Shown here piece after piece: positions 18,712-62,215 of a stretch of DNA of 64,000 nucleotides. The notes below the pieces were generated by a model. That model had not been told where the DNA came from. It was given only the letters and a program-made list of their open reading frames with translations, and ran no database searches. The DNA is taken from contig BCKZ01000010.1 in the NCBI GenBank assembly GCA_001600815.1, forward strand, positions 1 to 64,000. The letters are read 5' to 3'. The stretch is from Alloascoidea hylecoeti (lineage: Eukaryota). Made by a program: the position numbers and the translations under genes. How positions within the stretch are numbered: the first letter of the stretch is position 1; every line of letters starts with the position of its first letter.

Positions 18712-20541
18712 ATGACATCCAATAAGTTTACAAAACATATACATAAAGATGATACAAAGATAAAAAATTCCACTGTTGTTGTTGAAAAAGAAGTATCTAT
18801 AGATTTGAATAGACATACACCAACAGAAAATATAAATTTGAATAACTCAGAATTTAAAACAAATCTTAGCATTAACGGTTTAATCTTTTTAACAATCATT
18901 TTAATTATTGGTATGTTCATATCATTTTCAAAAGAAATTAAATCTTTTAATATTAAAGATATACTGGAGAGTCCATGGCAAATACAAAAAGGTAAATCAA
19001 ATGATCCTCCTTTAAAAGAAATTTCAAATGATATACCAAATGATTTTTGTAGTCCATCAACAGAAAAAGATAAATACGTTTTAATCATAGATGCAGGATC
19101 TCAAGGTTCAAGAATTCATATATATCATTTTAAAGAAAATCAAAGAAATACTTTAGATCAAATAATGAAGCAAGATGGTTTGGTTTTTCCAAAACTTGTT
19201 AATGAAACGTATTATCATGTGATACCTGGTTTGTCATCATATGCTGATGATAATGATAATGATAATGAATTTGCAATTAAAGCATCAAAATCATTAAATC
19301 AACTTTTAAATAAAGCATTAAATATAATTCCAAAAGAATTTCATGATGATATACAATTAGCAATTAAAGCAACTGCTGGGTTAAGATTGATTGGAGTTGA
19401 AAAAAGTGAATTAATTTTAAAAGAAATTGAAAAAAATATAATTGAAAATTATTCATTTTTAAAAATTGATAATGGAAATGAAGATAATAAAAGAATTGAA
19501 GTTATGGATGGGAAATACGAAGCAATTTATTCATGGATTACTTTAAATTATTTACTTGGTAGAATAGGTCATGATTATGATAAAGAATTTGATGATATTA
19601 ATAATGATAATGATGATAATCAAGAATTATATATTAAAGGTTCAGATTTAAATACAGCTGCAATAATTGATCTTGGTGGTGCATCAACACAAATTGTTTT
19701 TGAACCAAAATTTCCAAATGATAATTATTTAAAAAATCAATATTTATCATTATTAGAACCTGGTGATCATAAATATGAAGTTGAATTTAGTGGGTTAAAT
19801 TATACTTTATATCAACATTCTCATTTAGGTTATGGTATAATGGAAGCAAGAAAAATGTTAAGACAATTATTATTTAATAATGAACTTGAAAATAGAAATA
19901 GCAGTTCATTTGAAGAAGAAGATGGGTTAAAAGTTATAACTAATCCTTGTATTGCTGTTAATCTTAAAAGAGATGTTAAAATTTCCAAAAATAATGGGAA
20001 ATCAGAAATAATAAGAATGAAAGGACCAACATTAAATGATAATAAACAAGAATCTCTTAATAATTGTTATGAATTAACAAAAGAAATATTAAATTTAGAT
20101 ACTCATTGTTTACATGAACCATGTAGTTTTGATGGTATTCATCAACCATCAATAAATGAATTTTTTAATAAAGAAGAAGATATTTTTATAATATCATATT
20201 TTTATTATAGACTTACACCATTAGGTATATCATCAGAATTTACACTTATTGAATTATCAAATTTAATTGAAAATGTATGTTATGGAAAAGAATATTGGAT
20301 TAAAAACATAATTAAAAATATTAATAATAATGAAGATATTTTATTTGAATTAAATGATAGACCAGAATGGTGTTTTGATTTAACATTTATTTATTCAATG
20401 TTAAGATTTGGTTATGGAATAAATGAAACTAGAAAATTAAACGTTTTATCACATATAGATAATAATGAAATTGGTTGGAGTTTAGGGAATGCTTTAAGTT
20501 TATTAACTGAAGCTACAAGAATGGAAGATTATACGATATAG
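18712..20541 (+). CDS. GDA1: Golgi guanosine diphosphatase (GDA1/CD39 family), type II membrane protein
   Basis: N-terminal TM segment; apyrase conserved regions IDAGSQGSRIH, ATAGLR, MDGKYEA, DLGGASTQIVF and GWSLG. Confidence 0.85.
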   Translation: MTSNKFTKHIHKDDTKIKNSTVVVEKEVSIDLNRHTPTENINLNNSEFKTNLSINGLIFLTIILIIGMFISFSKEIKSFNIKDILESPWQIQKGKSNDPPLKEISNDIPNDFCSPSTEKDKYVLIIDAGSQGSRIHIYHFKENQRNTLDQIMKQDGLVFPKLVNETYYHVIPGLSSYADDNDNDNEFAIKASKSLNQLLNKALNIIPKEFHDDIQLAIKATAGLRLIGVEKSELILKEIEKNIIENYSFLKIDNGNEDNKRIEVMDGKYEAIYSWITLNYLLGRIGHDYDKEFDDINNDNDDNQELYIKGSDLNTAAIIDLGGASTQIVFEPKFPNDNYLKNQYLSLLEPGDHKYEVEFSGLNYTLYQHSHLGYGIMEARKMLRQLLFNNELENRNSSSFEEEDGLKVITNPCIAVNLKRDVKISKNNGKSEIIRMKGPTLNDNKQESLNNCYELTKEILNLDTHCLHEPCSFDGIHQPSINEFFNKEEDIFIISYFYYRLTPLGISSEFTLIELSNLIENVCYGKEYWIKNIIKNINNNEDILFELNDRPEWCFDLTFIYSMLRFGYGINETRKLNVLSHIDNNEIGWSLGNALSLLTEATRMEDYTI

Positions 20542-20588
20542 ATATAGATATAGATATAGATATAGATATAGATAGAGATATAGATATA
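20534..20588 (+). repeat. (GATATA)n microsatellite overlapping the GDA1 stop codon
   Basis: About 9 near-perfect gatata units. Confidence 0.95.
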
Positions 20589-20599
20589 AATATTAAATT

Positions 20600-21455
20600 A
20601 AAATTTTACTATTATTTTATTTAAAATTTTTGTCAACTGTGCAAATAAATTTAATAATTGATTATGTTCACTTAATCTTATTAATAAAGTATTTGAAATT
20701 TTATTTGTATCAATTAAATTAATTTCATGATTTAAAATTAATTTATCATGAATTTGATTTATAATTTGTGAACCACTCCAACCAGATAAAACAATATTAT
20801 CAATTAATTGAATTAATTTTAAATATAATTTATTATTTGAAATTGAAATTGATTTAAATTAATTAATGAATATAATTGATTTATAATTGGATCTGATTTA
20901 ATTCCTGCGATTTCTTGTATACTTTCAATTGTAATTGTTGTACTTTTATCATCAAAATATTTACATCTTTTACTATTAAATCACCATCTTCATCATATTC
21001 ATTTGTATTTGGATTTGGATTTTTTTGTAAATGTAACCTTGCAGCAGATTGTAAATAAGTTATTGCTTTTCTTAAATCATCATTTAAAACTTTTAAGATA
21101 CCTTTTAATGCATTATCATTATATGATAAATTTTCATTATTGGTAATAAATTTTAATCTTTCTAAAGAATTTAATTCATCTAATTTTTTAAATCTAAATT
21201 TTGAACATCTTGAAGCTAATGGATCAATTATTCTTGTTATATAATTACAAACCAAACAAAATCTTGTAATATTTGAATAAGTTTCAATTATTCTGGGTAA
21301 TGCAGATTGTGCATCGCTTGTCATTAAATCTCCTTCATCTAATATAATGATTTTATATGGTAAACAAGAATACTTTGATTTTTGTTCAGGTGTTGGTTTT
21401 GATACTGTTAATTTTGCAAACTTTTTAACTTTTTCTCGAACTATATTATAAACTC
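20600..21455 (-). pseudogene. RFC2: 5'-truncated, frameshifted replication factor C subunit 2 fragment
   Basis: IVREKVKKFAKLTVS...YKIIILDEGDLMTSDAQSAL.RIIETYSNITRFCLVCNYITRIIDPLASRCSKFRFK. The C-terminal part (SGWSGSQIINQIHD...EHNQLLNL) is in another frame. The N-terminus with Walker A is absent. Confidence 0.85.
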
Positions 21456-22039
21456 TAAAACTCGATATTTCATCAATTCGATTTTTTGGACGACTAATAA
21501 ATATATGAGTTTTAATATTTAGTACTTGGTATATTTTTCAACCTATGGAACAACACGAGGTTCCCATTTTTTGGCACCTTTTACCTTTCTGCTAGTTTAA
21601 ATGAATATTATCAAATTTATTGGAACTTATATATAATTATGAAAGATTATATGAAATTGTATCAAGATTAAGCACAAGTTTGAACGTTATAGTCTCTTAT
21701 CAATGGTGGAAATTCGTGATTTAGGAGTTTTACCAATTACTATATATTATATTCGATGAACTTGATAAAGAAGCTTATAATATTGGAAGGTTAATAATTT
21801 GGATAATAGAAGTAGGCCAAGAAGAGTATCTATTGTCGTTCCATTTGATTAATTGTTTACAGGGTCGATGACAGGCACTATCATATATTTCAACTACAGT
21901 TTCGGATGCTAATTATAAGTCATCTAGTTGATTACATAGAAGTTATAATTAAGGAAACCGTATCTTTTACCCAAAGAACTTTTTAACCCAGATAAGTCAA
22001 TTTTGTGTGCATATGGTATATTGGGAATCACAAATATAT

Positions 22040-40218: not shown

Positions 40219-43200
40219 ATGGTATGTATCTTTCACTTTCGCTTCTTCTTGTGCACGTGCCCGTTGATATCCATTCTTCATTGCTAACCTTTGTTCAAAA
40301 TATAAAGGTTCTATTCAAGCGTAAAGAGGTTACTTATGCTCAACCCGAGGTCTCTAATCCTGACTTGAATTCAAAGGTTTGGTTCATTCCTGAGACTGGT
40401 GAATATTTCTTCTCCTACGAAAAATATTTGACTCGGTATGTATATATCAATCCATCGGAATCCCATCTTAATATAACATTTCATTTGAAATATCTTAAAC
40501 TAATCTCTTTTCTATCTTTGTAGGATGGATTTTTATAATCGAAAAAAGTTCGTTTGTGAAATTACTGGCCACTCGTGTTTTACGTTTTTTGAAGCATTAC
40601 GTAGTGAAGTAAGTATTATATTAAAATCACTATCAATCAACATCACAAAAAAGAGAAAATTTAAAATTATTATTACAGTCACCTAATTATTATATTTATT
40701 AGAAACATGAAATATCTGAAGTTGAAGAAAACTTCCCAGAATCACTTCGAGAACCTGTTCTACGTTATATTCAATTTTCAACAGTATCACGTCTTGATAT
40801 GTTAGTTGATGAAGTCTACAATAAATTCAAACATGATTTTTATCCTGGTGAAACTGTTATTGTTAAACTTAATGATGAAAGATTAAAAGGTTTAATCCGT
40901 GAAAAAGCTCGATTTAATTCTGTTAAATTGACAAATGGTGAAAAGAAACAATCATATTGTCAATATAGAGTCATGTTAATAAAAGGAAGTGTTGAAACAA
41001 CTGTTAATGAAAATGAAGTTACAAGAGATCGTAAAGTTTTTACAAAATGGTATATGAAAACTTTTATAAAATTAACCGTTAAAAGAGATTTAAAAGCTGG
41101 TTCACCATGGTTAATTCGTGATAAATATGCAAATAAATATCGTATTGATCAAACTTTACCAGCACATTTATTAAAATCAACACAAGATTCAAATGATTTA
41201 GAAGAAATCAAAAAATCAAAACAATTACAAAAATTACATAAAAGAGAACAAAAATTAAAAGCAAGAGAAATTGCAAAAGGTGAATTAAAAAAGAAGAAAA
41301 AAATTGCAAAAAATGCTGCAAAATTTGCTGCAATTTTAAATAATAATGATTTAAAAAATAATACCAAAAATAGTGAGAATTTAAATTTAAATGGTTTAAA
41401 TGATTTAAATGATATTCATTATTCTTTAAATACAACAAAAAATAATGATTTAACAAATGAATTATTAACAAATGGAAAATTAATTTTTTCATCATCTGCT
41501 TATAAAAATGTTGTTAAAAAAATGATTCAAGAAGATTTAAAATTTCCTTATAATTATGCAAATATGATTAAAAAACCATTACCATTATTACAATCCGATA
41601 TTATTAATAATCTCAATAATAATACTAATCATAATAGTCATCATAATGATGAAAATGAGAAAGAAAATGAGAAAGAAAATGAAAATGAAAATGAAAATGA
41701 AAACGAAAATGAAAATGAAACTTTTAATAAATATATTCATAATCCAAATTTAGATTCAACATTATTAGAAACTTGGTCATTTTTAAATATTTATAGAGTT
41801 CCTTTATTAATTGATACATTTACATTTGATGATTATGTTGCAGTTTTAAATTTTAATGATTCTTCGTTAGAATGTAATTTATTAAATGAAATTTTTTGCT
41901 CAATAATTTCTTGTTTTATGGGTACAAATTCAAAAGATTTATTAATTATTTTACCTGCAAAAGAATTATATGGTAAAAAAATTGAAAATAAAAAATCGAT
42001 TAAAAAAATTAAAGATGAAAATGATATGGATATTGATGAAAGTGAAGTTGAAAAATCTATTAATGAATCTGGATCTGAAGATGAGAATGAGAATGAAAAT
42101 GAGAATGAGAATGAAAATGAAAATGAAACAGAGAATGAGAATGGAAATGGAAATGGAAATGGAAATGGAAATGGAAATGGAAATGAGAATGGAAAATCAA
42201 ACAGTAACGGAGAGGCTAATGATAGTGATGCCGATGATGAAACTGAAAACGAAACACAAAATGAAGAAATTGAAAATGATAATCAAAATGAAGATGAAGA
42301 TGATTCAATTCAAACTGAAATTAAAAACAATCGAAAATGGAAAAGTAAACTTCGTTCATTAATAAATAACAAAAAATATGATTGGAAAGATCGATTAATG
42401 AATCGTGATTTTAAAGATGGTAGTTGGCAAGTTATATTAGCAGGTATATTAGATTTAATATCATATGTTGAAGAATGGTCAAAAACATGTGAAGAAATTT
42501 TAATGATTTTATCACCATTTAATAAACCATCAAATCAATCAACGAGTTATTATCAATTTATTGAAAATTTAAATTTTGAAAATCGTCTAAAAAGTATTGA
42601 AATTTTAATTAAATTATTAACAAATTCAACAATTATAAGATCATATATTGATTCATGTATGGAAAAAAGTACACAATATAGAAGGGATAGATTAGAAAAT
42701 ATTAGAGAATATAAACAATTGGGTGAATCATTAAAATTATTAGAAGATGAAAAAAAGAGATTTTTACCAGATTTAGAAATTTCAAATAATAATACACCAG
42801 AACCACAAATTAATAATACTCAAGAAGAAAGTGATCAAGATCATGAAAATAATAATGAAGAAGTTAAATCATCATCATCATCTCATAAAAAAAAAAGAAA
42901 TAAAAAATCTAAAAAACAAATTGATTCTGAAATTTTATTATCAAAAACAAATTTAGAATTTAAAAAAATTTATGATAAAATTGAAGAAATTAATTTAAAA
43001 ATGGAATATTATTTAAATTTAAATAGAAATTTAGAAAAAAAATTAAATGAGATTGATTGTCAAAGAGTTAAATTATTAGGTAAAGATCGTTTATATAATA
43101 GATATTGGTGGTTTGAACAAAATGGAATGCCACATTTAGAAAAAGACGATGAAAGTGATGATGAAGAGAAAGATAAAACAAATGAAAAAGCGACTGATAA

Positions 43201-44551
43201 ATCAAAAGAAAGAGAAAAATCAAAATCAAAAGATCGTGAATCAAGTGAAGAAATCTTTGATGATACTTATATCATGGGGAGATTATGGGTTCAAGGTCCA
43301 ACAGATGAAGATCGAATGCATTATTTAGATATATCAGATAAAGAAGTTTTAAAATGGAAATCAAATCATTTAAAACTAATTGAAACTGGTAGAGAAAATG
43401 CAATTAAACAACAAGAAATTAACAAGGAATCTCAAAATAATAATAATGATTTTATCGATCCATCAAAAGAAATTATACCAGTTTTAAAAGCTCATAGTAT
43501 ATATCCACAAGGTGGTATAAATGGAGATTTATCAATATTAAATGAAAATAATGAAGTTATTGTAAATTCTCTTGGTGAAACTACAAAAATTGTTAAACCC
43601 AAAGAAAGAAAAATTTTAGAGGAAGCACCAATAATATTATTAGATTCAAATGATTGGGGTTATTATGATACACCATTACAAATTGAAGAATTTTTAAAAT
43701 GGTTAAATCCTTTTGGTATTAGAGAACATAAATTAAAAAAAGAATTAAATAATATTAAAAAGAAATTATTTGCAAGTATGGCAGCAAGACGTAAAGAATT
43801 GGAAGTATGGGAATCTGAAAGTAAAGAATCTAATATAAAAGATGATAAGAATGTTAAAGAAAAAGAAAAAGACAAAGATGATGATAATAATGATAATCCT
43901 GAAAGTGTTAATAATAATGATGATGAAGTGAAAGATGAAGGATCAGAAGAAATTCATAATACAAAAATATTAACATTATCTGATATTTCTGATTCTGAAT
44001 CATCAGAGTCAGAGTCAGACAGTGATTCCGAAGATGATGAAACAAATAAAGATGATTCTGATGAACCAGTTTCAAAGAAACGAAAAACAAGAAGATCGTC
44101 AGGTAAAAGTGTTGAATCATCAGTATCAAATAGTCGGAAACGAAGAAGTACACGATTAAGTAAAAGAGCAGAAAAAGAAGCTAAAAGAGAAATCAAAAAG
44201 AAAGCAAAGGCGGAACGTCGTCAACAACGTAAAACTGAAAAATTAAAACGAAAACTTGAAGAAATTGAACAACAAGAAAAACATGAAGCAAGAAAAAAGA
44301 GAAGGTTACACAAAGAGGAAGAAGAAAAGAAAATTCAAAATGAAAGTCTAAATCAACATCAAAATCAAAATCAATCAGTTGATGATGAATCAAATGATGA
44401 AAGTGAAGAAGAGATTCCTCCAAGTGTTCGAAGATGTTTATCATGGGTTAATTCAGTCGCAATTGATACTCTTGGTTATAGTCATTATGAAGGAGGAAGT
44501 AAAGCAAAAAACTCTAGAAAATCCGGGCATAGTAATGGACGTAAGAAATAA
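40219..44551 (+). CDS. ITC1: ISW2 complex subunit Itc1 (WAC, DDT and WHIM domains); join(40219..40221,40308..40435,40524..40608,40703..44551)
   Basis: Splicing gives MVLFKRK...VWFIPETGEYF...RMDFYNRKKFVCEITGHSCFTFFEALRSE KHE...FPESLREPVLR. Donors are GTATGT/GTATGT/GTAAGT with CTAAC/CTAAT branch points, and phases are consistent. DDT LLETWSFLNIY and LGKDRLYNRYWW are present. Confidence 0.92.
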
Positions 44552-44731
44552 ACTACATATATTTCGAAATGTAATGGTATACGTAATTTATTATGAGTAT
44601 TATGAACTATAAGATCTAAAGTTAGATCCTAATATTTCAATTCCAGTTATAAATTTAAATAACTATTTGTAATTGAAACAACTATATAAAAATAAAAAGT
44701 ACATGTAAAATAAAAATAAAATTTAATATAT

Positions 44732-45421
44732 TTAAAAATAACCATTCTTTAATGCTAATTTAATTTTTTCGATCTCAGCTAAACTTGTTGCAGTTTGTAA
44801 ATCATTTAATAATTTCTTTTTATCATCTTCAGTTAATGTATTAGTAACATATTGTTTTTCAATAGAAGTTGTTATATTTATATTTGATTTAATTGATAAT
44901 ATAGAATTAGTTAATGAAGTTTTTAAATCCCAAGTACCAAATAATTCAATTGATCTTTTCCTTTCAATGTCTTTAATTTTTTGAAAATCAATTATTCTTA
45001 AAGATGGAATTAACCAAATTAACCAAAGTCTATAATTTTCTTTTAATATTACTTCATTTGAAAGTAAAGTTATATAAATTAATTTTTTAAAATGTCGTAA
45101 AGGAATTAAATCAGATAATTCAGATAAATTATTTGAAGATAACACTAAAGTTTGTAAATTTGGTAAAGAAGATGCCATATTCTCTTCAATCTCACATATT
45201 CTGTTACGAGAGATAAGAAGAGTTTTCAAATGTGGTAAAGAAGGAAAATTACCTAAAAACAAAATATCATTATCCGTCAGGTTAATGGAGGCATTTATAT
45301 CTCTGGTGACACCCAAGTTTTCTATTTGCGGTGCTTTCAAGCCTCTTAGCAGCAATTCTCTGTCGCCGTCGGGATTTGTGTGACTTGGAGCGTATAAAAG
45401 CACATCCGGTGTTAATTTCAT
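44732..45421 (-). CDS. LEA1: U2 snRNP A' leucine-rich-repeat protein
   Basis: MKLTPD...RELLLRGLKAPQIENLG, INLTDNDI, LKTLLISRNRI and YRLWLIWLIPSLRIIDFQKIK. Confidence 0.92.
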   Translation of the reverse strand: MKLTPDVLLYAPSHTNPDGDRELLLRGLKAPQIENLGVTRDINASINLTDNDILFLGNFPSLPHLKTLLISRNRICEIEENMASSLPNLQTLVLSSNNLSELSDLIPLRHFKKLIYITLLSNEVILKENYRLWLIWLIPSLRIIDFQKIKDIERKRSIELFGTWDLKTSLTNSILSIKSNINITTSIEKQYVTNTLTEDDKKKLLNDLQTATSLAEIEKIKLALKNGYF

Positions 45422-45826: not shown

Positions 45827-47066
45827 CTATTCTTCCGGTTCTGGTTCAACAAATCTGAACTCTTCGTCAGTATATTTCTGCCAGAAAAAATAGATTGCAC
45901 TTAAAACTAGGAGTGAAAGAGAATGGGCTATAAAGGACCAAGCAACCCCAATCTCACATTCTATGTAATAAAAAACAAAAGGTGATGAAGCGTATCCAAT
46001 GTTCTCTGCTACTGACCCCATACACTCAGCAACAAACCAGCCAAGATCAAATTTTTGCAACCAGAAAATGGCTGTCTCCACAAAAACTTGGAATGAAATT
46101 AGCTTAAAAAGTTTCCCTGTATACAAATAGGTAACATTAATTCTATCATTGTGATATTTCAAGGCAAGACCTGAAGAAAGGTTTACGAAAAACAATTAAT
46201 CCAATGAGATTTTTTCGTCTTCTCAAGCATCTCACTCTTTCTATGGTTTCATGAATTATTAATCGGATGAAACCGTACATTCCTTGATAGACCAATATTG
46301 TTGTCGTCCATAATATCAGATTATTTGTGAACGTTTCATGGATCAAAGGAATTGATTTTGTGTTTGAATTTGTACTTTTTTGTTCAATATATTTGCAAAT
46401 TCGGTGATCTCTGGCGTTTTCTTCAATTGATGAAGAAACACAAAAATCATATATCAAACAAAGTATAAGAATAATCCCAATTATTGTCTTCCAATTTAAT
46501 ACTATTTTTACTTTTTCTTTTGATTTTAAGTTTAATATAATATTTTCCTGTTCTTCTAACATTGTGAAACAGAAGAACAAAGAATTTATTAAATCTATTG
46601 ACCTTGAAAAGTAGTGTCATTTTCAAAGTCAATAGAATTAATAAATTCTTTGTATTCTTCTGTTTCACAATTCAATCCTCTAGAGTGTGTTGATTTATTT
46701 GATGATATTCTTGCATCCATTACTTTCTGTGGTATCAATATCTAAATTAGTACTTGTAGATGGATAGGCTTCTTCAGTATCCACCTGGATATCTGGTAAT
46801 GGGGTATCATTGTTTTTCTTATCGCTATCGACTTTGTAACTCAAATTTGTATCTTTTATAATAATTATCTTTTCTTTTCCATTGGAATTTTGAACCATTG
46901 AAACTAATTTATAAGATTCTGTAGTCTCAGCATTTGAAGGTATCATCATTGTTGAACAACTTTTATTATTGTTGTTATCACTTTCACAATTGGTATTCAT
47001 CTCTAACTCCATATCTCTTAAGGTATCATCTACTTTTATCTTGTTGTTATTAGTAGTTTGAACCAT
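45827..47066 (-). pseudogene. Fragmented gene for an unknown multi-pass membrane protein
   Basis: Three consecutive minus-strand ORFs (47066-46695, 46580-46146, 46195-45827), with a hydrophilic N-part and hydrophobic segments downstream, broken by frameshifts and a palindrome. Confidence 0.5.
46561..46671. repeat. Near-perfect palindrome (~50-bp arms, ~9-nt loop)
   Basis: attgtgaaacagaagaacaaagaatttattaaatctattgaccttgaaaa / ttttcaaagtcaatagaattaataaattctttgtattcttctgtttcacaat. Confidence 0.95.
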
Positions 47067-47324
47067 TGTATCTAATTCATTAGCTATAGAAAAAGAAATA
47101 AATCATATACGACAGTTACACATTTGTTTTGTGACCCGTAATCCTATATGTAGGACTTACATAATATATATAGTGATTGTCTAATAACAAGAAGTGTAGA
47201 GGTTTATAACACGAGAGTAGATGTAATCCCAAAAAAAGCAGTTGCAACAACAGAAGTGACAATCAATCCGGGTTAAGAATAACTACTATATAAATACATA
47301 GCTACATACTTTTGATATTTTTCA

Positions 47325-47640
47325 GAAAGTGAACTTATTGTTCTTTCAGAAACAACGAGATATGCATTATAGATTAGAGGTGTGTTAAAGTTTTTGAATG
47401 TTACGTTTAATGTTATAATCAACATTTATGAAGATAACGAAAACACACCCTAATTGGCATCTGGAGATGTGTTAGAGAGTAAGCGTACAAAACATTTGGA
47501 TGTAAGATACAAATATATTTTCATGTGAATGAGATTAAATTGGTATCATATTGCAGAGTGAATTCTGAAGACAATTATGCTAATGGGTTTAAAAAACCAT
47601 TAGAGAGAAATACATTTAAAAAATTCAGAAACCAAATATC
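47325..47640 (+). mobile_element. Ty1/copia RNase H C-terminal fragment
   Basis: SELIVLSE...IYEDNE...KRTKHLDVRYKYI...VNSEDNYANGFKKPL, with in-frame stops. Confidence 0.85.
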
Positions 47641-47849
47641 AACTATTGAATATCCAGGACATTAAACTTGTTTTTTTATTATTTTTTGTAATTTTTTGTA
47701 ATTTTTTGTTATTTTTTTTTTTTGTTATGAAATTTTGTATGAGAAATAATTTGATAAAATTTGAACATGAATACTTTGGTGGAAATTATACTGGTTATTA
47801 TTATTAATTTTGTTTGTTATTGTCAACTTTATAATAAAACTGAACCTGG

Positions 47850-48740
47850 AGAATTAGAAACCATTAGTACAAGCAGTGCATTCAAAGATGTTTTTAGATC
47901 AATTAGAGAAAACCCTGATATTGAATCTGGTAATCAAGCAACTAATAGGGTCTATACAATTCAAAAAGACAATAATAGAAAATTTTTAATTAGAATATTA
48001 AATATATTGGTAACATTAAAGTCAAATTCCAAAAGGAACACAAGTTTAATGGAACAAATACTGTTGAGTGGGACAATGCTCTGGACACAATTTGGAATTA
48101 TATCCCTCATATGGTAGAATATATCAAATCTGAGAGTGAGAAATACAAAATTTATTCAAGTCTTAATGGTCCTGCACTCAAAATAATTAAGGAGATCTAT
48201 ACGGATGAAATTAAACTCACGATTTTTCAACCTCTTCAAATGTTGGAAAATGAAGATGCTGATGCTAGAACTTTCTTGTTAACTTTGGTTTCTGCATTCA
48301 AAGAATCACCAATTCAATTTTTCCAGGATTTAATTCATAATCTAGCAAAATCTTTTGAACCAACTTCAGTTGAAGATATCATTCAAAGGTCACTTGANGC
48401 AAAAAAGATTGCGGTATTTTTTAGGCACTACAAAATCACAAGTAATTTGATGATGAGTATGGTTCGCTTACAAAGTAATCAAAGATGGTGCTGACTATGT
48501 CAAAGATTATGGAATAAAAGAAATGTTTACCTATACAAAAGGAAGATATAATAGACTTGGATGATTTGGATAAATGGACTGCTAAGTTAGTATCAGAGAC
48601 CACCCAAAATAAAATATTTTTTAATAAATCAAATACTTTACATAACAGAACTCATAAAAATAACAAGAATAACAAGAACAATCATAAGTACCTGAAAATA
48701 AAAAACTTCCCTAAGAATTTATATCTGGAGGATATTTAAT
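47850..48740 (+). mobile_element. Possible degenerate retrotransposon gag-like remnant
   Basis: Chain of short frameshifted helical-looking ORFs right after the copia RNase H piece, ending in an N/K/H-rich tail; no diagnostic motif. Confidence 0.3.
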
Positions 48741-48747
48741 TAATAAA

Positions 48748-49322
48748 TTATTTGACATCTCTACTAGATGCTTTTACTATTATTGGGAGGATCCCACCAT
48801 TCTTGAAGTTGAAAGGTCGATGTCCAGTTACAGCTAGAATCCCATTTATCACATTAGGGTGACAAGTCACACTGATAAATAGATCCTCAATCTCTTCAGG
48901 ATTTTGGAGTTTACCTTCATCATCATCGTTGTCGTAAGTTTTACTTCTTCTCATCAATTCAGCGTTAAATAACATTCTTAAAAATTTCATAGCTCTCTTT
49001 TCCACATGAGCATCTGTTTCCCTAACATCAGGTTTCCAGCCTAAGCCCTCTTTTGTAAATGGCTCAACCGCCAATTTTGGGTAATTAACTTTAAAATAGG
49101 CGCAAGATCGTTTTCTGTCACAAGTATGAACACCAATTTTTTCATGTAAGGCATCCACAATAGTTGGGCGTGTTTTATCATCATCAGGAAAAGAAAATCG
49201 CCAATTTTATCAAGTGTTATATCACCCCAAGTAAGAATCACTGTGTCCAACGCCCTTTTAAAAGGCGAACTATACCGTACTGATTCAAAACGCCAGTCAC
49301 TTCTTTTTGCTTCCATTTTCAT
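48748..49322 (-). pseudogene. PMU1-like histidine-phosphatase/phosphomutase pseudogene, copy A (N-terminal region deleted)
   Basis: MKMEAKRSDWRFESV is fused directly to YSSPFKRALDT; HEKIGVHTCDRKRS, RETDAH, FISVTCH and GGILPIIVKA follow. There is a frameshift near 49160 and the RHG-motif region is missing. Confidence 0.75.
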
Positions 49323-49804
49323 TACAAAATAATAGCTCTCTGATCTCTTATATGTGTAAGCAGATTGCTAGCAACGAAATTAAGCAAGATATTTAATGTA
49401 AACTTTATTTGCATTATGCACCTTCTCAGTTCCGAATAATGCATGAATAACAATAATAGTAACAGATTATTTTGTACAACAATATTAATATCAAATTGCA
49501 ATTAATAAACCTTTTAAATTTTTAAGATAACAGGGTAATAAAAATAGTTACCTTACTTTAAAACTCTGATATAATTATACAGAGTAAGATACCTTGGAAG
49601 TGAAGTAATATACCAGCAATTTATTTATTATTAGAATCTAGGATTCAAAATATTATTAATCTGAATCAACAAAAACAGCTTTAAGGTTATAAGCCTTATT
49701 TACGTATTATATACTACGATATCTTATATTTATTTCCTGGCCAATCTATTTACAGTTCTATTACTTGTAATTATGTAAACTTAAAACTAAACCAACTCAT
49801 AACT

Positions 49805-50215
49805 TTATTGTATATGCCTCCAAAGATAGCGGTTTGGATTACGCATCATAAGTTGAACATTCGACCCATCTTGGGTATCCTTAGATAACTCCGATTTATT
49901 TAATTCACTATCATCAATAGTCTTGAAAGCCAAAACAAATCGTGCTAATGCGATATAAATAGCATTACTGGCTAAATTATGACCCATACACATTCTACTT
50001 CCCGCTCCAAAAGAAAACTGAATCAAATCATTTAATTCAGTTTCATCTTCATTTAGGAATCGTTTGGGCTCAAATCGTAAAGGATCAAAAAATGCTTTTT
50101 AATTTCTATTTGCCAGATATGCGTTTAAAATAATCATCGTTCCTTTGGGAATAATTGAGCCCTTGTAATTAATAGCCCTAGTAGTTTCACGAGGTAGAGA
50201 AAGAGGTAGTGAAGT
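49805..50215 (-). pseudogene. 3' fragment of a cytochrome P450 (CYP504/phenylacetate-hydroxylase-like)
   Basis: TSLPLSLPRETT...IPKGTMIILNAYLANRN*...FEPKRFL...FSFGAGSRMCMG (heme-binding motif). In-frame stop; the 5' part is replaced by ITC1-derived sequence. Confidence 0.85.
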
Positions 50216-51411
50216 AAGTATTATATTAAAATTACTATCAATCAACATCACAGAAAAAAAGAAAATTTAAAATTATTATTACAATCATCTAATTATTATA
50301 TTTATTAGAAACATGAAATATCTGAAGTTGAAGAAAACTTCCCAGAATCACTTCGAGAACAAATGGTGAAAAGAAACAATCATATTGTCAATATAGAGTT
50401 ATGTTAATAAAAGGAAGTGTTGAAACAACTGTTAATGAAAATGAAGTTACAAGAGATCGTAAAGTTTTTACAAAATGGTATATGAAAACTTTTATAAAAT
50501 TAACCGTTAAAAGAGATTTAAAAGCTGGTTCACCACGGTTAATTTGTGATAAATATGCAAATAAATATCGTATTGATCAAACTTTACCAGCACATTTATT
50601 AAAAATCAACACAATTACAAAAATTACATAAAAAAGAGCAAAAATTAAAGGCAAGAGAAATTGCAAAAGGTGAATTAAAAAAGAAAAAAATTGCAGAAAA
50701 TGCTGCAAAATTTGCTGCAATTTTAAATAATAATGATTTAAGTGATATTCATTATTATTCTTTAAATACAACAAAAAATAATGATTTAACAAATGAATTA
50801 TTAACAAATGGAAAATTAATTTTTTCTTCATCTGCTTATAAAAATGAAAATGAAAATGAAAATGAAAATGGATGAGAATAGAAAATCAAACAGTAACGGA
50901 GAGGCTAATGATAGTGATGCCGATGATGAAACTGAAAACGAAACACAAAATGAAGAAATTGAAAATGATAATCAAAATGAAGATGAAGATGATTCAATTC
51001 AAACTGAAATTAAAAACAATCGAAAATGGAAAAGTAAACTTCGTTCATTAATAAATAACAAAAAATATGATTGGAAAGATCGATTAATGAATCGTGATTT
51101 TAAAGATGGTAGTTGGCAAGCAGGTATATTAGATTTAATATCATATGTTGAAGAATGGTCAAAAACATGTCTATAATTTTCTTTAATATTACTTTATTTG
51201 AAAGTAAAGTTATATAAATTAATTTTTTAAAATGTCGTAAAGGAATTAAATCAGATAATTCAGATAAATTATTTGAAGATAACCCTAAAGTTTGTAAATT
51301 TGGTAAAGAAAATGCCATATTTTCTTCAATCTCACATATTCTGCTACGAGAGATAAGAAGAGTTTTCAAATGTGGTAAAGAAGGAAAATTACCTAAAAAC
51401 AAAATATCATT
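50206..51411 (+). pseudogene. Collapsed segmental duplicate of ITC1-LEA1 (source 40601-45271)
   Basis: Near-identical collinear blocks matching 40601-40754 (including intron 3), ~40931-41510, ~42183-42490 and ~45028-45271. Confidence 0.97.
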
Positions 51412-52599
51412 TTATGAGAAATATAAGGGACATAAAGGATTGGGTTTATTAGAAGTATGTAGCTATGTAAGACTTATATTTGTTGCTTCATAGTAGAAAA
51501 ATATGTAAGTCTGGCTAGAATTATCAAAGAATATCAAATAATTAGCTATTTAACAAACACCATTCCAATTCAGAATAAATATGGCCTATACAATATTTCA
51601 AATTTACAATATTATAAATAAACATATTTATATTGATATATATATCTAATATAATATTTCAAATTATTAATACAAAATTTCAAATAAATATAATTAATAT
51701 ATAAATTACTTTAATCCACCATCATTAATACAATACGTGATAATGAATCAAAGCAATATAGAAAGTGAAACACTAGTTGATAAATATTCAAATAACACCA
51801 AACAAATAGCATATTTAACCGCTACTGTTTTCGACCACTTGCGCACCGTTATAATCTAGGACTTTAAATTTCTAGAAGAACGCTTTCAACCAGGACTCCT
51901 TCAGAAAATATCAGCCTTCAATATCCCCTCGGGAAAGACCTAGAATTCCTGCTATAGTAGCGACCACATCAATTCCTACTTTCAATTTTAAAGAAAGCAC
52001 CTACTACACTTAAAATGATATGTGATGAGTATAAATACCCATGTCGAGAGCCTTTATCAATCGAGTAACTAGATCAAAGATATAAGGCAAAGTGGAGAAT
52101 GAGGGCTGATATTTGTAAGAAATATTCACGCAGAAAAAAAACTACACATCCATGATTATGGGTATTTCTAAAGCCCTTACTGAGACTAGATGTTTGCAGC
52201 TATTGGAAAGGAAGTTAATTCCAGATGAGCTGAAGTAGGACACGAATATATTTCATATTTTATATTTTTTGTTTGTATATTTTTTTTTATATTGAAGGTG
52301 ATATTTATATAGTAAATATTTATAATAATGTAGGTGTATAACGATCTTCAGAAAGTTAGTTTTTAAAATGTAAAATAGTGCTATTTAAATTCAAGTCTAC
52401 GCAATTAGATATTTGTATTATAAATGGGTGGTATATTTAACCTGCGCGCGGGTCTTACACACATGTGTGTGAACATACAGCCGCAGAGGTCTGAAAGTTT
52501 GTTAGGTAAAAAGTCAAATTTTTCTGGGACGATATAAGTATTTATATAGTAGCTACGCTTACCCGGATTAACAGTTTATGATCTATAAAACAGAAATGT

Positions 52600-54640: not shown

Positions 54641-56118
54641 GTTTAAATCTCAAAAAAATGTAATTTGAAGAAGGTGTTATGAATTGTTGTATCAAATATT
54701 AATAGTGTTTATTTGATTGATGATTCTTAAACGGAAGATGGGATATTTGATTGTTTTATAGTCGTATTGTATATCTCATGATAATAGGAGTGGACTTAGC
54801 GTTGATTAATCTCCACCAATAAACACTCTCATATTTATAAGCAGATGAGATAAATGCAATTATAAATAATTATAAGCACTGTATATATCCAAAATTATAT
54901 ATTTAACTTATTAATATCAGACACTACTAGTAATTGGCCTAAATATAAATTAAACTATGGGCCTAGGTACATGTATGATTTCAATATGATCTGTCTTTTT
55001 CGTACTATTTGAGATCTTTGCAATTGATATTGATTACAATTATATTTTACCAATATTAAACATATATCCAACATGGTACATTTCAGGTCACTCATCTTTT
55101 TTTTTCTTTTTTAATCAGAATTGACCCATGTAGATGATCAATTTAAAAGTAGATACTAGAATTATAGTAGATCTACAGCTGGGATATTGATTATGACATC
55201 AGGATTAGACATCAATAATTCTATATTTGCTATAATTAGTTTGTATCAAACCCTATAAGTTTAAACCTATAGCTATGTAATGTAAGTTAAATTACTAAAA
55301 TTACATTTATATACTGCATACTTTAGAGCCATTGAAATTGTAATTGATTTGTAGAACAATAATAAGATTGTTTACTATAAGAGCGTTTATTGTAAGGACC
55401 TTATAAATGTGGTAAGAGTTGCTATGTAAGAGTTACTATAGGCTTTAAACTAAAATCCAGTTTGAGTTTCGCAACATAACATAGTTGAAGTTTATTCATC
55501 ATTTCTCATAAAATTATAGAAATCTATTAATATTAATATTGCATAATTAAGTCGATCACAATACATCGATCTATAAGCGCTCTATAATAAAAAAAACTCC
55601 ATTTGCTACGCCGATCACCATTGTGATACAACTAAGAATGGCTCACAAATGTGGTTAGTTCTAAACCTAATACTTTGGATTAATTTAATTTCAGAGTAAA
55701 TAGATGACTCTAAAAGAAAAGTATTACATGTACTTTATTATTATGAGCAATTACAATATCAGATAGCTATAACTAGATAGATTTAAGAAAAATTCTTCTT
55801 ATTAATTGAAATTTAAGTATATTAAAGGATTCTCTCGAGCTCTACAGCGCGCTAACTAATTAACTTCAATTTTAATTGCAACCACCGCTTGAAATCTCTT
55901 TATAAAATTATTTAAAAGCAACATCTTTAAAAAGCAATATCTTTAAATTGAAGACTTCTAAGCCGTTGCTGCTATAGATCTGATATACCGTGTATCTATT
56001 CATATAATACTTAAAATACTTAAAGGTAGCGTCGTTGATTTATGCGATGTCTAGGCCTATAGGAAGCAACAATAATTTGTAGCGAATTATGGAACTACGA
56101 AATAAATTATTGATATCT

Positions 56119-56711
56119 TTACCTAGAAGCTTTAACTATTATTGGGAGAATCCCACCATTCTTGAAGTTGAAAGGTCGATGCCCAGTTACAGCTAGAATC
56201 CCATTTATCACATTAGGGTGACAAGTCACACTGATAAATAGATCCTCAATGTGTGTGTGTGTGTGTGTAAGAATCATTGTGTCCAAAGCCCATTTAAAAG
56301 ATGGACTAAGCCATACCTGTGATAATGGAACCCTCTTTTTAGTTGTTCTTTCCAGGAAACATTACATTTTAGGACTTCCTTCAGCCCAGTCTCGGTTAAT
56401 TCTGGATCCGGGCCAAAGGTAATTGACTTATAGTTAATTTTCAAGGCCCATTCCATGTTCCACTCTTTTTAGGAAGTGAAGTTACGCCACCCTTCTCCGT
56501 CACTTGCAAGAAACAGCATCCATCTTGTAAAATATTGACCTATCATCATTGTTGATAACTAGACTTTTGAAATTTTCGATTATGGTCTTCCAACACTAAA
56601 ATTTGAGTCGATATAATTAAAGCTGATATCATCAGTTGATTCATTGTCTTGACGAAAATAACCAGGTACTGATGTAAAACGCCAGCCACTTCTTTCTGCT
56701 TCCATTTTCAT
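56119..56711 (-). pseudogene. PMU1-like phosphomutase pseudogene, copy B (central region deleted)
   Basis: MKMEAERSGWRFTSVPG/YFRQD...LFLASDGEG (degenerate RHGEG)...GPDPELTETG...FKWALDT, then a (TG)n tract, then IEDLFISVTCHPNVINGILAVTGHRPFNFKNGGILPIIVKA, almost identical to copy A. Confidence 0.75.
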
Positions 56712-57659
56712 TACAATTTTAATAAGAGCTATATATCTGATCTCTTATATGTGTAAGTAGATCGCTAATAACCAAGTTAGAATAAGATATTCATATGTGT
56801 GTAATACACCTGTAGGAGACCAAAAAAAGAGAGGCATAATTATGCACCTTCTTAGTTCCGAATAATGCATGAATAACTGTAACAGATTAAAGAGGTTGTA
56901 CAGAATATTTAGTGCTTCAAGTGTCCGATTATTTTAGTGATCACATATCCGAATAATTAGTCCTCCAAGTATCCAATATTAAGTGAAAATGCTGTATCAG
57001 GCCATGTAATAATGAGTCCGTAGTAGAGTCCGTACTACAACGGTGACTAACTTAAGGGTTTATCTACGGACCCCTCCACTTTTGACTTAATGCAAGTTGG
57101 TGCTTTCGGTAAAATTTAAGCTATATTACATATCACTAGTCCTAAAGCATCAATATGCATTAAAAAATCATGTGCATATTTCTTGTTATGTGCAGTTCCC
57201 AAACAGGGAATTTCCAGATCGTTGATCCATCCCACTATGTATGCAGTGACAATTTCGGTGAGCCGCACCATATGCATAGTCAATCTCTCAAAAAATGTTC
57301 AAGTTCCCTGTATTCTACAAAACACTTTGATATTTACTTTTTAGTAAATAATTCTTATTGAGAGTTAATGTTACTTGCTTATCACTATTTTTTGAGGAAA
57401 TAAATATAACAGTGACATACATCATTGTAGGTAGACTTTCCCGAACCCGGATCCTGTACATACCGAATATTCCTTACTGATAACCGATCAACGGATATCA
57501 ATAGTTCGTTTCACATTCCATTGAGAGGTACGCATTGTGTAATATACAACTTTTCAAGAATTCGTCTTCCGATAAAGCATACCTATATGGTGAAGTGATA
57601 GCACTCGTTTTTTAATTATATAGGGACCTTTAAATCAAAACAATATCTACTGGAACATA

Positions 57660-59110
57660 ATCAGCGTTACTTCTATTGGTATTAGAACCACGAATGGCTT
57701 GTATTTTCACTAATACTTTTTTCAACACATTTATGCTTGGTACTTTTGATTGTGGATTTAACTTGATTTTAAATTCTATTTCATAAAATCTTGATAAGTA
57801 ACAGGTTTTAGAATTTGGAACTAGATAAGAACTTTAAGAAGATATTCTGATATTTAAAATTTTTTCATAAATGGTTTTATCCGTTTTAGGATCGTAGTCC
57901 GCTGTCCATCCATTCCAATTATGAATATCTTCTTTGTAACCAAGTTTACTATCACTGAAGTCATCCAAATTTAAAGTGTCCTCCGTATCAAATTTCACAG
58001 AACGACCAACAATATCATTAGCATCTCTAATCTTATATTCTAGAGAGTATTCTCTTAAATCCTTATATGTGTTTAAAGATAACTCGGACATTCCAATGGT
58101 AGTATGGACTTATAAGTGTGGTTCCACTAATGTGATAAGTGGCGGAGCCTCTGGTACTCCATCAATCAATCTTGGAGTAAAAATGAACTTCATCGGATAT
58201 ACCAAATATCTAGTCGGGTTAGTTGTTTAAGTCTTAAACCATACATAGGAGTATTACTTTTCTTTATAACCTCATAAACATCTGGGAATTTTTGAACAGG
58301 TTTTCTTAATTCTTCCTTTCGGATGTACTTTAAATTGTCATAAATTCCTCTGGCGAAAATAGAATTGGATTAGGACGAGGTGTGATCACTTTGATTGTTG
58401 ACATGGATTGATTCCTGGTGGAAAATATCTTTGGTTTCTCCGCTAGCCATTTAAAATGTTTATAAAAAAAATATAACTTCCCTATTTTAGAATCTATGTA
58501 ATGAATAGTTTTAAATTTCATGCTATCATTTGAATTTCCATAAATAATAGTAGCCGATATATATTTAGTCATATCGAGATACGATTGCAACAGGTAAGGA
58601 GAAAGTGCAGGATATGAAGGGATAATTTTAAAAGAACGATATGCCGTCATTGATTTAATTTGTTGTGTGTCTTCATGTTCATTATCAAGTGTAACACAAT
58701 TTTCGATTCTGGCTTCAAAATAATAAGTATTGCTAACATTGATATGTGGGCGATTATATTGTCGGAGAATATCATGCTTAAAATTATTAGTTAAAGCGTC
58801 AACTGCAGAGGTACGACACATATAAGATCGAGGCCTCCTCGTGAAATTGTCTACCTTGGAACCAAGATCACGGTTACGGTTCGGTTGGCAATTATTTGGT
58901 CTAAGAATGGAGTAGTGATGCATATTATTTTGAGAATATTTATTGATAATCATAGGATCATAATAGAAATTTCCTTCAAAACTAGGAGGTAATCGATTAT
59001 GGAGCTGGTTATCAAGGCATGGTTCCAATAGTTTCTCAGGAATAAAGGTAAATTTTATGAAATACCTCTTACAAGCTAAAGTAATAATTTTTGCAACCAT
59101 CAGTTCCAGT
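57660..59110 (-). pseudogene. Bul1-like (Rsp5 adaptor, arrestin-related) gene, frameshifted and 5'-truncated
   Basis: FTFIPEKLLEPC...HNRLPPSF, YYFEARI and YRSFKIIPSY, plus C-terminal LVPNSKTCYLSRFYEIEF, resemble Bul1 N and C domains. Split across several ORFs; the 5' end abuts the retrotransposon. Confidence 0.55.
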
Positions 59111-59119
59111 AGTTGTTTT

Positions 59120-62100
59120 TGTTGTTATTTCAATTTTAATTAACTTATTACATGCCTTGCATATTGGATATGCAGGGAGTACTTGGTAATTCATATACTA
59201 CATACAGCAAGCCCCTTAATATTACTACCACCTCCTTATTATTATTTAGCCTATATAGTTACATATATAAAATAGTTAAATCCATTGGATTTAACTCTCT
59301 ACTTTTTCTTATTCCTATTTAATATANTATTTACTTTATCTTTTTTACTTTATTAGTTTTACCGATTATTAGATTTCCAATCTTTTCGTCTGTGAACTAT
59401 TCAAACTACTCAATAACTACTTTAAAACTATTTAAACAAAATGTCCGATAACAAATTTGAATTTGGAAAAGACTTCGATATTTCAAANGAAGTCTTCAAA
59501 GCTACTAAAACAGGTGTTACTGCTGGTGAATTCGCAAAGTTTGAAAAAGGATACTATCTTCCTGTTGTCATTAAATGGCTCAAGATTAAACTGGTAACAA
59601 TTGTNAACTCTACTGATATTGATATTCAAAAATTTTTAGACTGCACTTCTGTNAATTTTTATCCACCCAATTTTGCTCTTATTCTGGAATACTTATTAAA
59701 ATTACGATTTTCTACAAATCAAAGTACTACGAAGAAGACTTGAATGGTATTGATCTGTTTTTTACTTTGAAAAAGGATTATAAAATTTTGGATAATGGAA
59801 CTAGAATTGGATTGTTAAAAAATTTCTTTGATGAAACCGTTAAATCTGGCTGTAATGTAAAAAACTTCAATGAAAAGGTTAATGTAATTGTCAATTATTT
59901 TCCTCACTTGAAAAAATGTATCCCATTAATCACTATGTTCAATCTGTCTTCTGCCCAACAAGACCAAGTTCTAATGAGAAAAGACCTTAATGGTGANAGT
60001 GAAACTGATAATATNAAATTTGAAGCAATGAAACATACAGANATTCTTTCTTATATTCGCAAGCTTACTGATAAAGGAGTTCTCCCAGAATCTTCAAACA
60101 TTGAATCAAATANNACTGATGAAGTGAACTACNGAGAACATAAAGCAAAATTCTATAAAAATGTCCGCTGTTATCGCTGTCACAAATTTGGTCATGTCAT
60201 GAACGATTGTCCACTCAACAAGATGAGAAAGCATCCAAAAAGATATGAGGTTATTCAATATGTTGAACTTCCGAGCGGCGCTGATATATACTATTCTGCT
60301 AGAAATGATTCTGATGAAGATGATGAAGAAGCAAATCTTGTTGAACATGAAGAAGAAGTATTTCTTNTCTCTGATGTGGAATTTATTATCGATTCAGGAG
60401 CAACTTGTCATGTTGTGCATGATAAATCGATTTTGGACAATGTTTCTACCTCTAAAACTTCTATTCTTCTCGTAACTTATACCTTTGCTTTTAGTTTGAA
60501 TTAAATAATGGATAACCCTATGTGCAGCCTTAAGGTGTTGTTGTGTTGGATTCGTTAGGAATCTAGACAATAAAGAAGCACTGAAAGAGATATCTGGTCT
60601 GCAAGTATTTGAAGTAAAGTTGATAACACCAGCTTTGAAAATTCTTATGATCTTTATCATTCAACAATGGAGATTCCTTATATGGATTAAAGCCTTTGAC
60701 AAGAGGAGTATTAACTTTGGATTCTTTATGAAGATTGTAGTCACTTTGAATTTTAGTTAAGAAATCATTCAAGCAGATCTTAATACCACCAGTTTCNGTC
60801 CTATTGAGATTCATACCAAGAAATAGTTTTGGAAAACCCGAATCCTTAACCGGAAATTTTGCCTTGATACCCATTTTGATTTCATTCATAACTTTTTCAG
60901 GAGCNCCAATTAATGAATCATCAACATAAATAGGTAGGAGACTATCATTCTTGAAGAATAAACAGGGTTCTAATTCACTTTGAGAATAATTCAAATTTCT
61001 AAGAACTTCAGATATTGTCTTGAACCAAACACTTGGAGCCTGCTTAAGACCATATACAGCACGTTTCAACTTCCAAACCTTGGATGAATCAACTCCTGCA
61101 CCATCTGGAGGATTTAAGTAAACCTCATGATCNATAGGTCCATGCAAAAAAGCAGTTGTAACATCCAGTTGACACAACTTCCAATCATTCTGTACTACTA
61201 TGTTGAGAACAAATCTTAGCATCTCATAAGAACAAACAGGAGCATAGATATCGAGGTAATCTTTTCCAAGCTCTTGTTTAAANCCCTTTGCAACTATTCG
61301 AGACTTGAATCGTTCATTATCACCTTCGGATTTCACAACATGTACCCATCTTGAAGGAATTATTTGTTGGGTAACAGTAGATCTATCCACAAGTTCAACA
61401 ACATCACAAGCCCTGAAAGAATTCAACTCTTGATTCATAGCATTAATCCATTGATCTTTTTGAGGTGACTTTAGAATATCTGAAAAAGACACAGGAATAT
61501 CATACTTTGATTTGTTGACTAACAAGTTGACATCTTCATAATCAGAAATGAATTCATTGTCATCTGTAGAATCAGTCAATAATTTCGAAGGAGTTTGTGC
61601 AGTAGANATTGGCTTCAGATATTTCTTTACAACCTTAAGACCATTGGAGTTTTCAGTAAGTCTAGCTTTATCATGTCTTGGTTTGGTGAGAACATTAAGG
61701 GAATCAGAAGAATTTTCAAAGCATTGTAGGTGTTATCAACTTTACTTCAAATACTTGCAGACCAGATATCTCTTTCAGTGCTTCTTTATTGTCTAGATTC
61801 CTAACGAATCCAACACAACAACACCTTAAGGGTTATCCATTATTTAATTCAAACTAAAAGCAAAGGAGAAGAATAGAAGTTTTGAAGAATATAAAGATTT
61901 CCAGCTATTAAACACTACAAAAGCAGTTACTATCCATAACTATCCTCAATGTGAAAGATTTACAATCAAGGTGATCTCAGACTCTGATCATGGTTCAGAT
62001 ATTAATGACAGAAAGTCTCAAAGTGGTTACTGTGTCTTTGCCAACAATAATCTTATTGGATGGGGTTCTAGAAAACAAAAGAGTGTCAGTATTTCCAGTT

Positions 62101-62190
62101 GTGAAGCAGAATATTATGCATTATCTGAAGCTACTAGAGCAGCTCTATTTTTTAGGAATATCATGAATGAATTAACACACTTGTGGGTAA
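59120..62190 (+). mobile_element. Rearranged Ty1/copia element: putative 5' LTR, gag and protease (+), inverted RT (-), RT end and RNase H start (+); integrase missing
   Basis: CYRCHKFGHVMNDC knuckle and IIDSGATCH protease. Minus strand has RWVH...KSRIVAK, QLDVTTAFLHG, YGLKQAP and IYVDD. Plus strand has RPDISF and SDSDHGSDINDRKSQSGY...SSCEAEYYALSE. Scattered single N's. Confidence 0.93.
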
Positions 62191-62215
62191 CCTTGATTTA
62201 ATTGAGTTTATGTCT

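Follow-up and report, generated by a model that had tools for sequence, protein, structure and literature searches.

The shortened ITC1-LEA1 copy at 50206-51411 of the window (the whole stretch of 64,000 nucleotides analysed here) is the right half of a larger compound insert, whose left half went unnoticed in the earlier note. The halves come from two donors, both located on C10, the contig carrying the window. The donors are joined base to base, which favours template jumping among the mechanisms that had been offered, MMBIR/FoSTeS being one of the options. In the reading that we prefer, with a probability of about 0.5, one switch-prone repair synthesis built the insert and probably its large forward jumps, while the small gaps were added later by ordinary decay. 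Judged from its sequence, the locus is likely a templated insertion of the MMBIR/MMIR type.

Self-comparison of the window and exact alignment agree with the earlier note that 50206-51411 is a collinear copy of 40601-45271. The copy aligns over 1,202 bases with 21 substitutions (1.7%), slightly more than the 15-20 previously counted by eye. The parental genes and the blocks of the copy, as placed by alignment, are the following.

40219..44551 (+): intact ITC1-like gene with the Pfam domains WAC_Acf1_DNA_bd, DDT and WSD (reading frame and sequence)
44732..45421 (-): intact LEA1-like (U2A') gene, convergent with ITC1; Pfam LRR_9, E 1.5e-47 (reading frame)
50206..50358 (+): block 1, matching 40601-40752; holds ITC1 intron 3 (~50214-50308); then a 178-bp gap, overlap AC
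50359..50600 (+): block 2, matching 40931-41172; then the 38/39-bp gap within an imperfect 14-nt repeat
50601..50731 (+): block 3, matching 41211-41344; then a 54-bp gap, overlap 11 nt
50732..50845 (+): block 4, matching 41399-41509; then a ~165-bp jump into GAAAAT tract 1
50846..50870 (+): block 5, four GAAAAT units matching 41675-41699; then a ~482-bp jump to the end of tract 2
50871..51168 (+): blocks 6-7, matching 42182-42488; 9-bp gap at 51118 (overlap AG), then a 2,539-bp gap (overlap GT)
51169..51411 (+): block 8, matching 45028-45271; middle of LEA1, without start or stop (alignment and reading frame)

The last exon frame of the ITC1-like gene (40703-44551) encodes 1,282 aa; its putative upstream exons and the ATG at 40219 were read by eye from splice signals. 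We take the gene at 44732..45421 to be LEA1, the LRR_9 domain itself having been tested. A search of the 24.8-Mb genome matched this donor as the sole other ITC1/LEA1 locus. The copy lacks 178, 38 (or 39), 54, ~165, ~482, 9 and 2,539 bp of the donor and shows 4 further indels of 1-3 bp. Its length is reduced from 4,671 to 1,206 bp, a loss of 74% that matches the previous estimate of about 75%; the single 2,539-bp gap accounts for 73% of the 3,465 bp lost. All gaps run forward, with no duplication among them. There are six or seven gaps, depending on how the jumps at the GAAAAT tracts are read. The earlier minimum of six therefore stands, although the passage through (gaaaat)n had been counted as one event: the four perfect GAAAAT units of the copy match the first donor tract and are followed by sequence matching the end of the second, which makes two jumps (~165 and ~482 bp) the simpler reading. 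Intron 40609-40702 (GTAAGT...CTAAT...TAG) is retained in the copy, so the template was DNA, as the earlier note had argued against a retrocopy. At 50844-51176 the GAAAAT tract, in another frame, appears to supply ATG codons that enter the ITC1 frame; the predicted reading frame of ~110 codons ends at the 2.5-kb junction.

The copy is free of selection—its 21 substitutions comprise 5 synonymous, 12 non-synonymous and 4 intronic changes, it has no start, and its frames are broken. Divergence from the donor is alike among the blocks.

The other half of the insert and its surroundings consist of the following features.

47214..50208 (-): left half, an inverted copy of C10:117962-115492 (genome matches and alignment)
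47614..48907 (strand not assigned): mismatch-free tract of 1,294 bp against C10 ~117560-116260, with an N at the matching site in both copies (alignment)
50206..50208 (+): long-range junction from P450 (C10:115492) to ITC1 (40601) via three shared bases, GTA (match overlap and sequences)
51412..51465 (-): right flank, an RNase H-like remnant ~80% like that of the donor, broken off at the junction and resuming at ~52536-52570
51466..52459 (+): decayed repeat-family copy with 8-bp inverted ends (TGTAAGAC...GTCTTACA) and gaps of 21-466 bp against the copy on contig C43

The left half contains a retrotransposon RNase H-like remnant, a gag-like frame, a fragment of a histidine-phosphatase gene and the 3' end of an intact P450 gene; Pfam matches P450 on the second donor and His_Phos_1 on a relative of the phosphatase fragment on contig C8. 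The RNase H-like label of the left-half remnant comes from a weak similarity (E 2e-4) to a frame that neighbours an RVT_2 frame, and from characteristic motifs; Pfam and PDB searches with the RNase H-like remnants gave no match. The ITC1, LEA1 and P450 frames of the donors are all open. Taken alone, the GTA junction is within chance, overlaps of at least 3 nt arising in 9-17% of random joins. Comparison with paralogues suggests an overlap of 3-5 nt (TCA/TCATT) at the right junction. The genic halves differ from their donors at 13/430 (left) and 21/1,202 (right) positions, which is compatible with one age (Fisher P 0.12). The non-coding parts of the left half are more divergent, with, for example, 13 changes in ~150 bases at 49534-49698. 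The mismatch-free 1,294-bp tract lies within a pair of inverted copies that are 68 kb apart and differ by 3-9% elsewhere; it reflects either later gene conversion or homogenisation by the assembly. Both members of the left-half pair have lost DNA since the copying, as polarised by paralogues: 18 and 470 bp from the donor and 25 bp from the copy.

Several other features were noted. The repeat family of 51466-52459, which we take to be a Crypton-type DNA transposon, carries GCR1_C and weak NDC10_II domains (Pfam) on its C43 copy. It is usually found after TA and is present on at least 6 other contigs, and its aligned copies (including L064:6290-7860 and one at locus L066) carry internal gaps. 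A short near-palindrome resembling fused ends of this transposon lies 60 bp left of the insert (47144-47162), and may be an excision footprint or chance. An imperfect fold-back palindrome at 46561-46671, with core arms of 34 nt at 94% and a 9-nt loop, separates frames 46146-46616 and 46695-47102, both without a Pfam match. Two decayed histidine-phosphatase copies (48748-49469 and 56101-56889) each miss a different part, with a (TG)n run in one gap, while an intact relative lies at C8:433185-434168. Diverged copies of a kinase-like frame (weak Pkinase/RIO1) occur at 2523-3338 of the window, at C10:118421-118788, just past the second donor, and at C22:362709-363606. Capture of the insert by a Pack-type transposon was considered and rejected: only one copy exists, and the apparent inverted ends are decayed RNase H-like paralogues rather than termini.

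The deletions were claimed to be joined through short shared sequence. The aligner gives exact overlaps of 2 (AC), 4, 11, 1, 2, 2 (AG) and 2 (GT) nt at the internal junctions; the 4-nt overlap of the 38/39-bp gap sits inside a 13-of-14 imperfect repeat, and the two GAAAAT-tract junctions (overlaps 1 and 2) are also readable as 5-6 nt. We compared the sum of overlaps with that of deletions of equal lengths slid along the parent. The observed sum is above chance, which bears out the claim: P is 0.0006 for all 7 junctions, 0.0005 for the 5 unambiguous ones and 0.003 with values capped at 4. The three 2-nt junctions are weak by themselves, with P 0.16 for their sum and 0.02 for all three reaching at least 2 nt; at a base composition of 24% GC, 23-33% of random deletions show such an overlap.

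The background rate of deletion was estimated from 813 kb of the 24.8-Mb genome, a non-random sample consisting of C10:1-534,000 and loci from earlier searches. Among 163 chained paralogous pairs, 33 show at most 6% divergence, and 18 non-redundant pairs were kept after dropping the ITC1-LEA1 locus and 14 rows (a repeated LTR family, a palindrome on contig C25 and a shared event). These young pairs display 26 indels of at least 8 bp per 300 substitutions (0.087), with a median of 25 bp and a tail to hundreds of bp, although selection may act on some of the pairs, the indels are mostly unpolarised and the sample under-detects large deletions. The earlier note had called for a genome-wide ratio of deletions to substitutions; the ratio is obtained here, within the limits of the 813 kb. 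Indel rates show strong overdispersion from pair to pair (chi2 60 on 16 df).

A very young duplicate (C10:337094-337878 against 341334-342170) has 1 substitution and two gaps, of 11 bp with overlap 2 and of 42 bp with overlap 9. In a duplicated block with 85 substitutions and 6 indels of at least 8 bp, the loss is reciprocal: the copy at 19992-21590 of the window has an intact GDA1/CD39-family gene and a broken RFC small-subunit gene, while C8:991892-993694 has an intact RFC and no more than the tail of the GDA1-family gene. The C25 palindrome (C25:242759-245572) is large and near-perfect, its 905-bp arms showing 2 differences, with a third identical copy of 683 bp between the arms. A Copia-type remnant at 59119-62201 (RVT_2, zinc knuckle) has halves facing each other around the inverted repeat 60454-60651/61883-61703, and its LTR-like end misses 76 bp found in young identical copies elsewhere. 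The sequence at 57400-59124, compared with C10:93923-95436, belongs to a Bul1-like gene family that is present in many copies on C10 and other contigs, and is itself broken.

With 7 deletions per 21 substitutions, the ITC1-LEA1 copy lies above the pooled rate (P 0.003-0.005, values that correct neither for overdispersion nor for having picked the most striking pair), and the earlier note had seen an unusual excess of deletions. Substitutions in the lost DNA are invisible, however, so the ratio only looks high: when 4,671 bp are left to decay in simulation at the background rate until divergence reaches 1.75%, 6.4 junctions result on average. Another neutral pair, the transposon copies on contigs C39 and C43, has 6 indels per 21 substitutions, three absent from each copy, and those absent from C39 can be seen in further copies of the transposon. 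For a 4.7-kb start, the deletion count of the ITC1-LEA1 copy is ordinary. The three gaps below 100 bp per 21 substitutions are near the background of 26 per 300, and only the four large gaps stand out.

The simulated junction count and the C39/C43 pair speak for the strongest rival, in which the insert was copied at full length (~7.7 kb) and all seven gaps followed serially, in a lineage where neutral DNA would lose pieces of 10-2,500 bp, bounded by short repeats, far faster than in Saccharomyces. We regard this as possible and clearly less probable than the preferred reading. The losses on both sides of the left-half pair suit it, as does an indel density that climbs through 0.42, 2.25 and 3.04 per kb at 0-1, 1-3 and 3-6% divergence, although over the 18 pairs this rise is not significant (rho 0.35, P 0.16). 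The amount of DNA lost, by contrast, is difficult to reconcile with serial decay alone: 165 bases per substitution at the ITC1-LEA1 copy, or 44 if the largest gap is left out, compared with a background of 5.6. In simulations of serial decay, where the size sample under-counts large gaps, four gaps of at least 150 bp arise with P 0.001-0.002 at the pooled rate and 0.04-0.09 at the highest rate, and a loss of at least 70% with P at most 0.005. Most comparison pairs are shorter than 1.5 kb, so kb-sized gaps are invisible in them and the size test is biased toward rejection.

Under the preferred reading of switch-prone synthesis followed by decay, a repair event would have copied ~3 kb of C10:118-115.5 kb in inverted orientation and then switched template via GTA to ITC1, 65-75 kb from the second donor and 6-10 kb from the insertion site. 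From there synthesis would have run along ITC1 into LEA1 before returning to the chromosome within a retrotransposon remnant, the product being a templated insertion of the MMBIR/MMIR or SDSA type. Some or all of the four large jumps (178, ~165, ~482 and 2,539 bp), two of which lie between low-complexity GAAAAT tracts, probably belong to the same synthesis. Without a promoter or a start, the copy would have been neutral from birth, and would have gained its 21 substitutions and the 9-, 38- and 54-bp deletions between short repeats at the background rate. Arguments for this sequence of events are the base-to-base join of two donors from one contig with its 3-nt overlap, the single age that fits both genic halves, the rarity of such large losses in simulated decay, and the forward direction of all gaps, as in S. 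cerevisiae repair synthesis (PMC12891019, in its accessible part). Other observations weigh against it: the simulation under-counts large serial deletions, gaps of 222-983 bp are present in older pairs, and 470 bp disappeared from the donor itself once it had been copied. The repair-synthesis deletions in the accessible part of the same study lie mostly within ~80 bp, so a 2.5-kb jump requires full template switching. The higher non-coding divergence of the left half could also mean an older or two-step origin.

MMBIR/MMIR is expected to depend on Pol32, to be independent of Rad52 and NHEJ, and to show mutations clustered at junctions. Error-prone synthesis might have left such clusters, but the substitutions in the copy show none (median distance to a junction 42 bp, P 0.45-0.64), in a test of low power after later drift. 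Another rival reading, in which a single template-jumping event of the FoSTeS/MMBIR kind produced all gaps including the small ones, appears improbable. It would agree with the overlap at every junction and the forward direction throughout, and the 38- and 54-bp gaps fit the size and overlap of repair-associated deletions in the available text of PMC12891019. At 1.7% divergence, however, ~1.8 small deletions per 21 substitutions are expected anyway, and the neighbouring neutral DNA of insert and donor acquired gaps after the copying.

The earlier note also suggested a deletion analogue of RIP, that is, a homology-aware process stripping pieces of 10-2,500 bp from duplicated DNA faster than from single-copy neutral DNA. 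RIP leaves an excess of C-to-T changes in the CpA context and involves a C5 cytosine methyltransferase-like gene, RID/DIM-2. The likeness of our locus to RIP of filamentous ascomycetes is that a duplicate is degraded, and nothing more. C:G to T:A changes make up 11 of the 21 substitutions, in the contexts CpA (4), CpT (5), CpC (1) and CpG (1) against an availability of 140:90:29:28, so a CpA bias is absent from the copy (4/11 compared with 49% available). A profile search, which detected 9 of 14 controls, found no PF00145 candidate for a C5 methyltransferase in the genome, absence from an assembly being no proof. Near-identical repeats are left untouched: 5 of the 6 pairs below 1% divergence (217-1,341 aligned bp) are without any indel of at least 8 bp, as is the 1,294-bp identical tract, and many repeats persist in the genome. 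The suggestion draws some support from the very young pair on C10, with 2 gaps per 1 substitution, from the overdispersion of rates among pairs, and from the fact that the measured pairs are duplicates by definition and offer no single-copy contrast. We consider it highly unlikely.

Inspection of the repair genes, which the earlier note had proposed for KU70/KU80/LIG4/POL4 and mismatch repair, makes gene loss no explanation either. The genome contains two Ku genes, two ATP-dependent ligases, one with ligase 4 as its best match, and one Pol X. There are four MutL genes and six MutS loci, including MSH2 and an intron-containing MSH3, both confirmed by comparison with solved structures; GT...AG introns account for the split match of MSH3, and the names of the remaining MutS loci are putative. 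A DNA2 domain is encoded in an open frame of 1,041 aa. A repair-deficient mutator lineage was accordingly rejected, the genes for end joining and mismatch repair appearing to be present, some of them seen in part. A deletion process targeted to duplicates, if true, would act with a full set of repair genes and without the RIP methyltransferase.

An artefact of assembly is very improbable. Ns at matching sites in both left-half copies indicate repeat trouble in the assembly, but 21 substitutions in a neutral pattern are unlike mis-joins, and 50206-51411 contains no N. Runs from three studies contain 0.77-0.86 of the sampled words of 49500-52500 (run X5, with 0.19, was left out), with 0.85-0.86 in the probable source runs and 0.84 in X3, a metagenome run of another study. 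Among the 31-mers of this region, 30% occur elsewhere in the DNA compared; words found in the insert part and nowhere else make up 38%, and those confined to the ITC1 copy 22%. X3 therefore carries the insert, single junctions amounting to 9% of words and falling below resolution, while the 0.77 of run X4 fits the ITC1 copy being present or absent.

A chimeric cDNA, made by a retrotransposon reverse transcriptase switching between RNAs, with gaps as switches or splicing, is largely refuted and about as improbable as an artefact: retrotransposon remnants do lie at both flanks and the 178-bp gap is readable as GT...AG on the minus strand, but a true intron is retained, the copied DNA comprises ITC1 in sense, LEA1 and P450 in antisense and intergenic sequence, in-register splice ends are missing from the remaining six gaps, and no poly-A or target duplication was seen on reading the locus. 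Cryptic splicing was rejected as well, since GT...AG is confined to the 178-bp gap, where it lies on the minus strand and lacks a yeast-type donor.

Duplications of the MMBIR/FoSTeS type are described in S. cerevisiae. The deletion process had been put forward as undescribed in budding yeasts, but template switching (PMC2518615), multi-fragment insertions (PMC11724301) and a 12:1 excess of deletions (PMC12891019) are all published for S. cerevisiae, as the accessible parts of these papers attest. The literature searched, with most subscription papers outside its reach, held no natural yeast duplicate with serial internal microhomology deletions.

The implications extend to the genome as a whole, where a hint of mid-sized DNA loss in a repeat-rich yeast genome of 24.8 Mb is the more useful by-product of the analysis. 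Mid-sized deletions seem commoner here than in Saccharomyces. In the available part of one survey, Saccharomyces intergenic indels are mostly 1 bp, and the longest deletion is 73 bp among 1,175 (PMC2817411), compared with our 25-bp median for indels of at least 8 bp and a tail to hundreds. Dead DNA here loses pieces of at least 8 bp at ~0.09 per substitution; the corresponding ratio for S. cerevisiae mutation-accumulation lines, with indels of every size counted, is 0.04-0.07, as we computed from the rates in the accessible text of 10.1101/250365. A genome-wide rate of mid-sized deletion several times that of Saccharomyces, without targeting, is a tentative conclusion, at somewhat less than even odds. 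If true genome-wide, this would be a yeast, open to genetics, where gain by transposons and duplications is offset by plant- or fly-like DNA loss. Redundant DNA decays by short deletions through illegitimate recombination in maize, with Drosophila also cited (PMC2893956, in the portion available); the likeness is that dead genes and transposons become shorter through deletions bordered by short repeats, some of them imperfect. Truncated pseudogenes make up 34-64% in eight yeasts (PMC2876123), a survey that, in its accessible part, counted end truncations and not internal deletions per substitution.

The nearest relatives of the locus are found among repair products of S. cerevisiae, here described from the accessible parts of the respective papers. 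Microhomology/microsatellite template switching (MMIR) yields segmental duplications there (PMC2518615), which resemble our insert in being duplicated at the DNA level, mostly intrachromosomal, with junctions at short overlaps or low-complexity tracts and with chimeric genes. Laboratory MMIR differs in having one junction of 5-10 nt and duplications of tens of kb, whereas this insert, a natural relic that has become fixed, has overlaps mostly of 2-4 nt, draws on two donors and contains as many as nine junctions. Double-strand breaks in yeast capture multi-fragment templated insertions (PMC11724301), similar in joining several distant fragments, including inverted pieces, at one site with short overlaps. 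Such insertions are frequent only in rad27, RPA or dna2 mutants or in stressed cells, with 5-7% being complex, and same-orientation pieces from one locus are very rare among them, while here the pieces are collinear and the DNA2 domain lies in an open frame. In repair synthesis, microhomology-bounded deletions outnumber tandem duplications 12:1 (PMC12891019), which accounts for forward-only jumps. With a mean of 56 bp and a mean overlap of 6 bp, these deletions are like the 38- and 54-bp gaps; only ~2% exceed 400 bp in one set, whereas this copy has four gaps of 165-2,539 bp, several in one tract. The locus is a clean fossil, left in nature by template-switching repair in a yeast, whose two donors and as many as nine junctions can be read to the base. 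Known processes explain it well, and it is a good example of them rather than a new mechanism.
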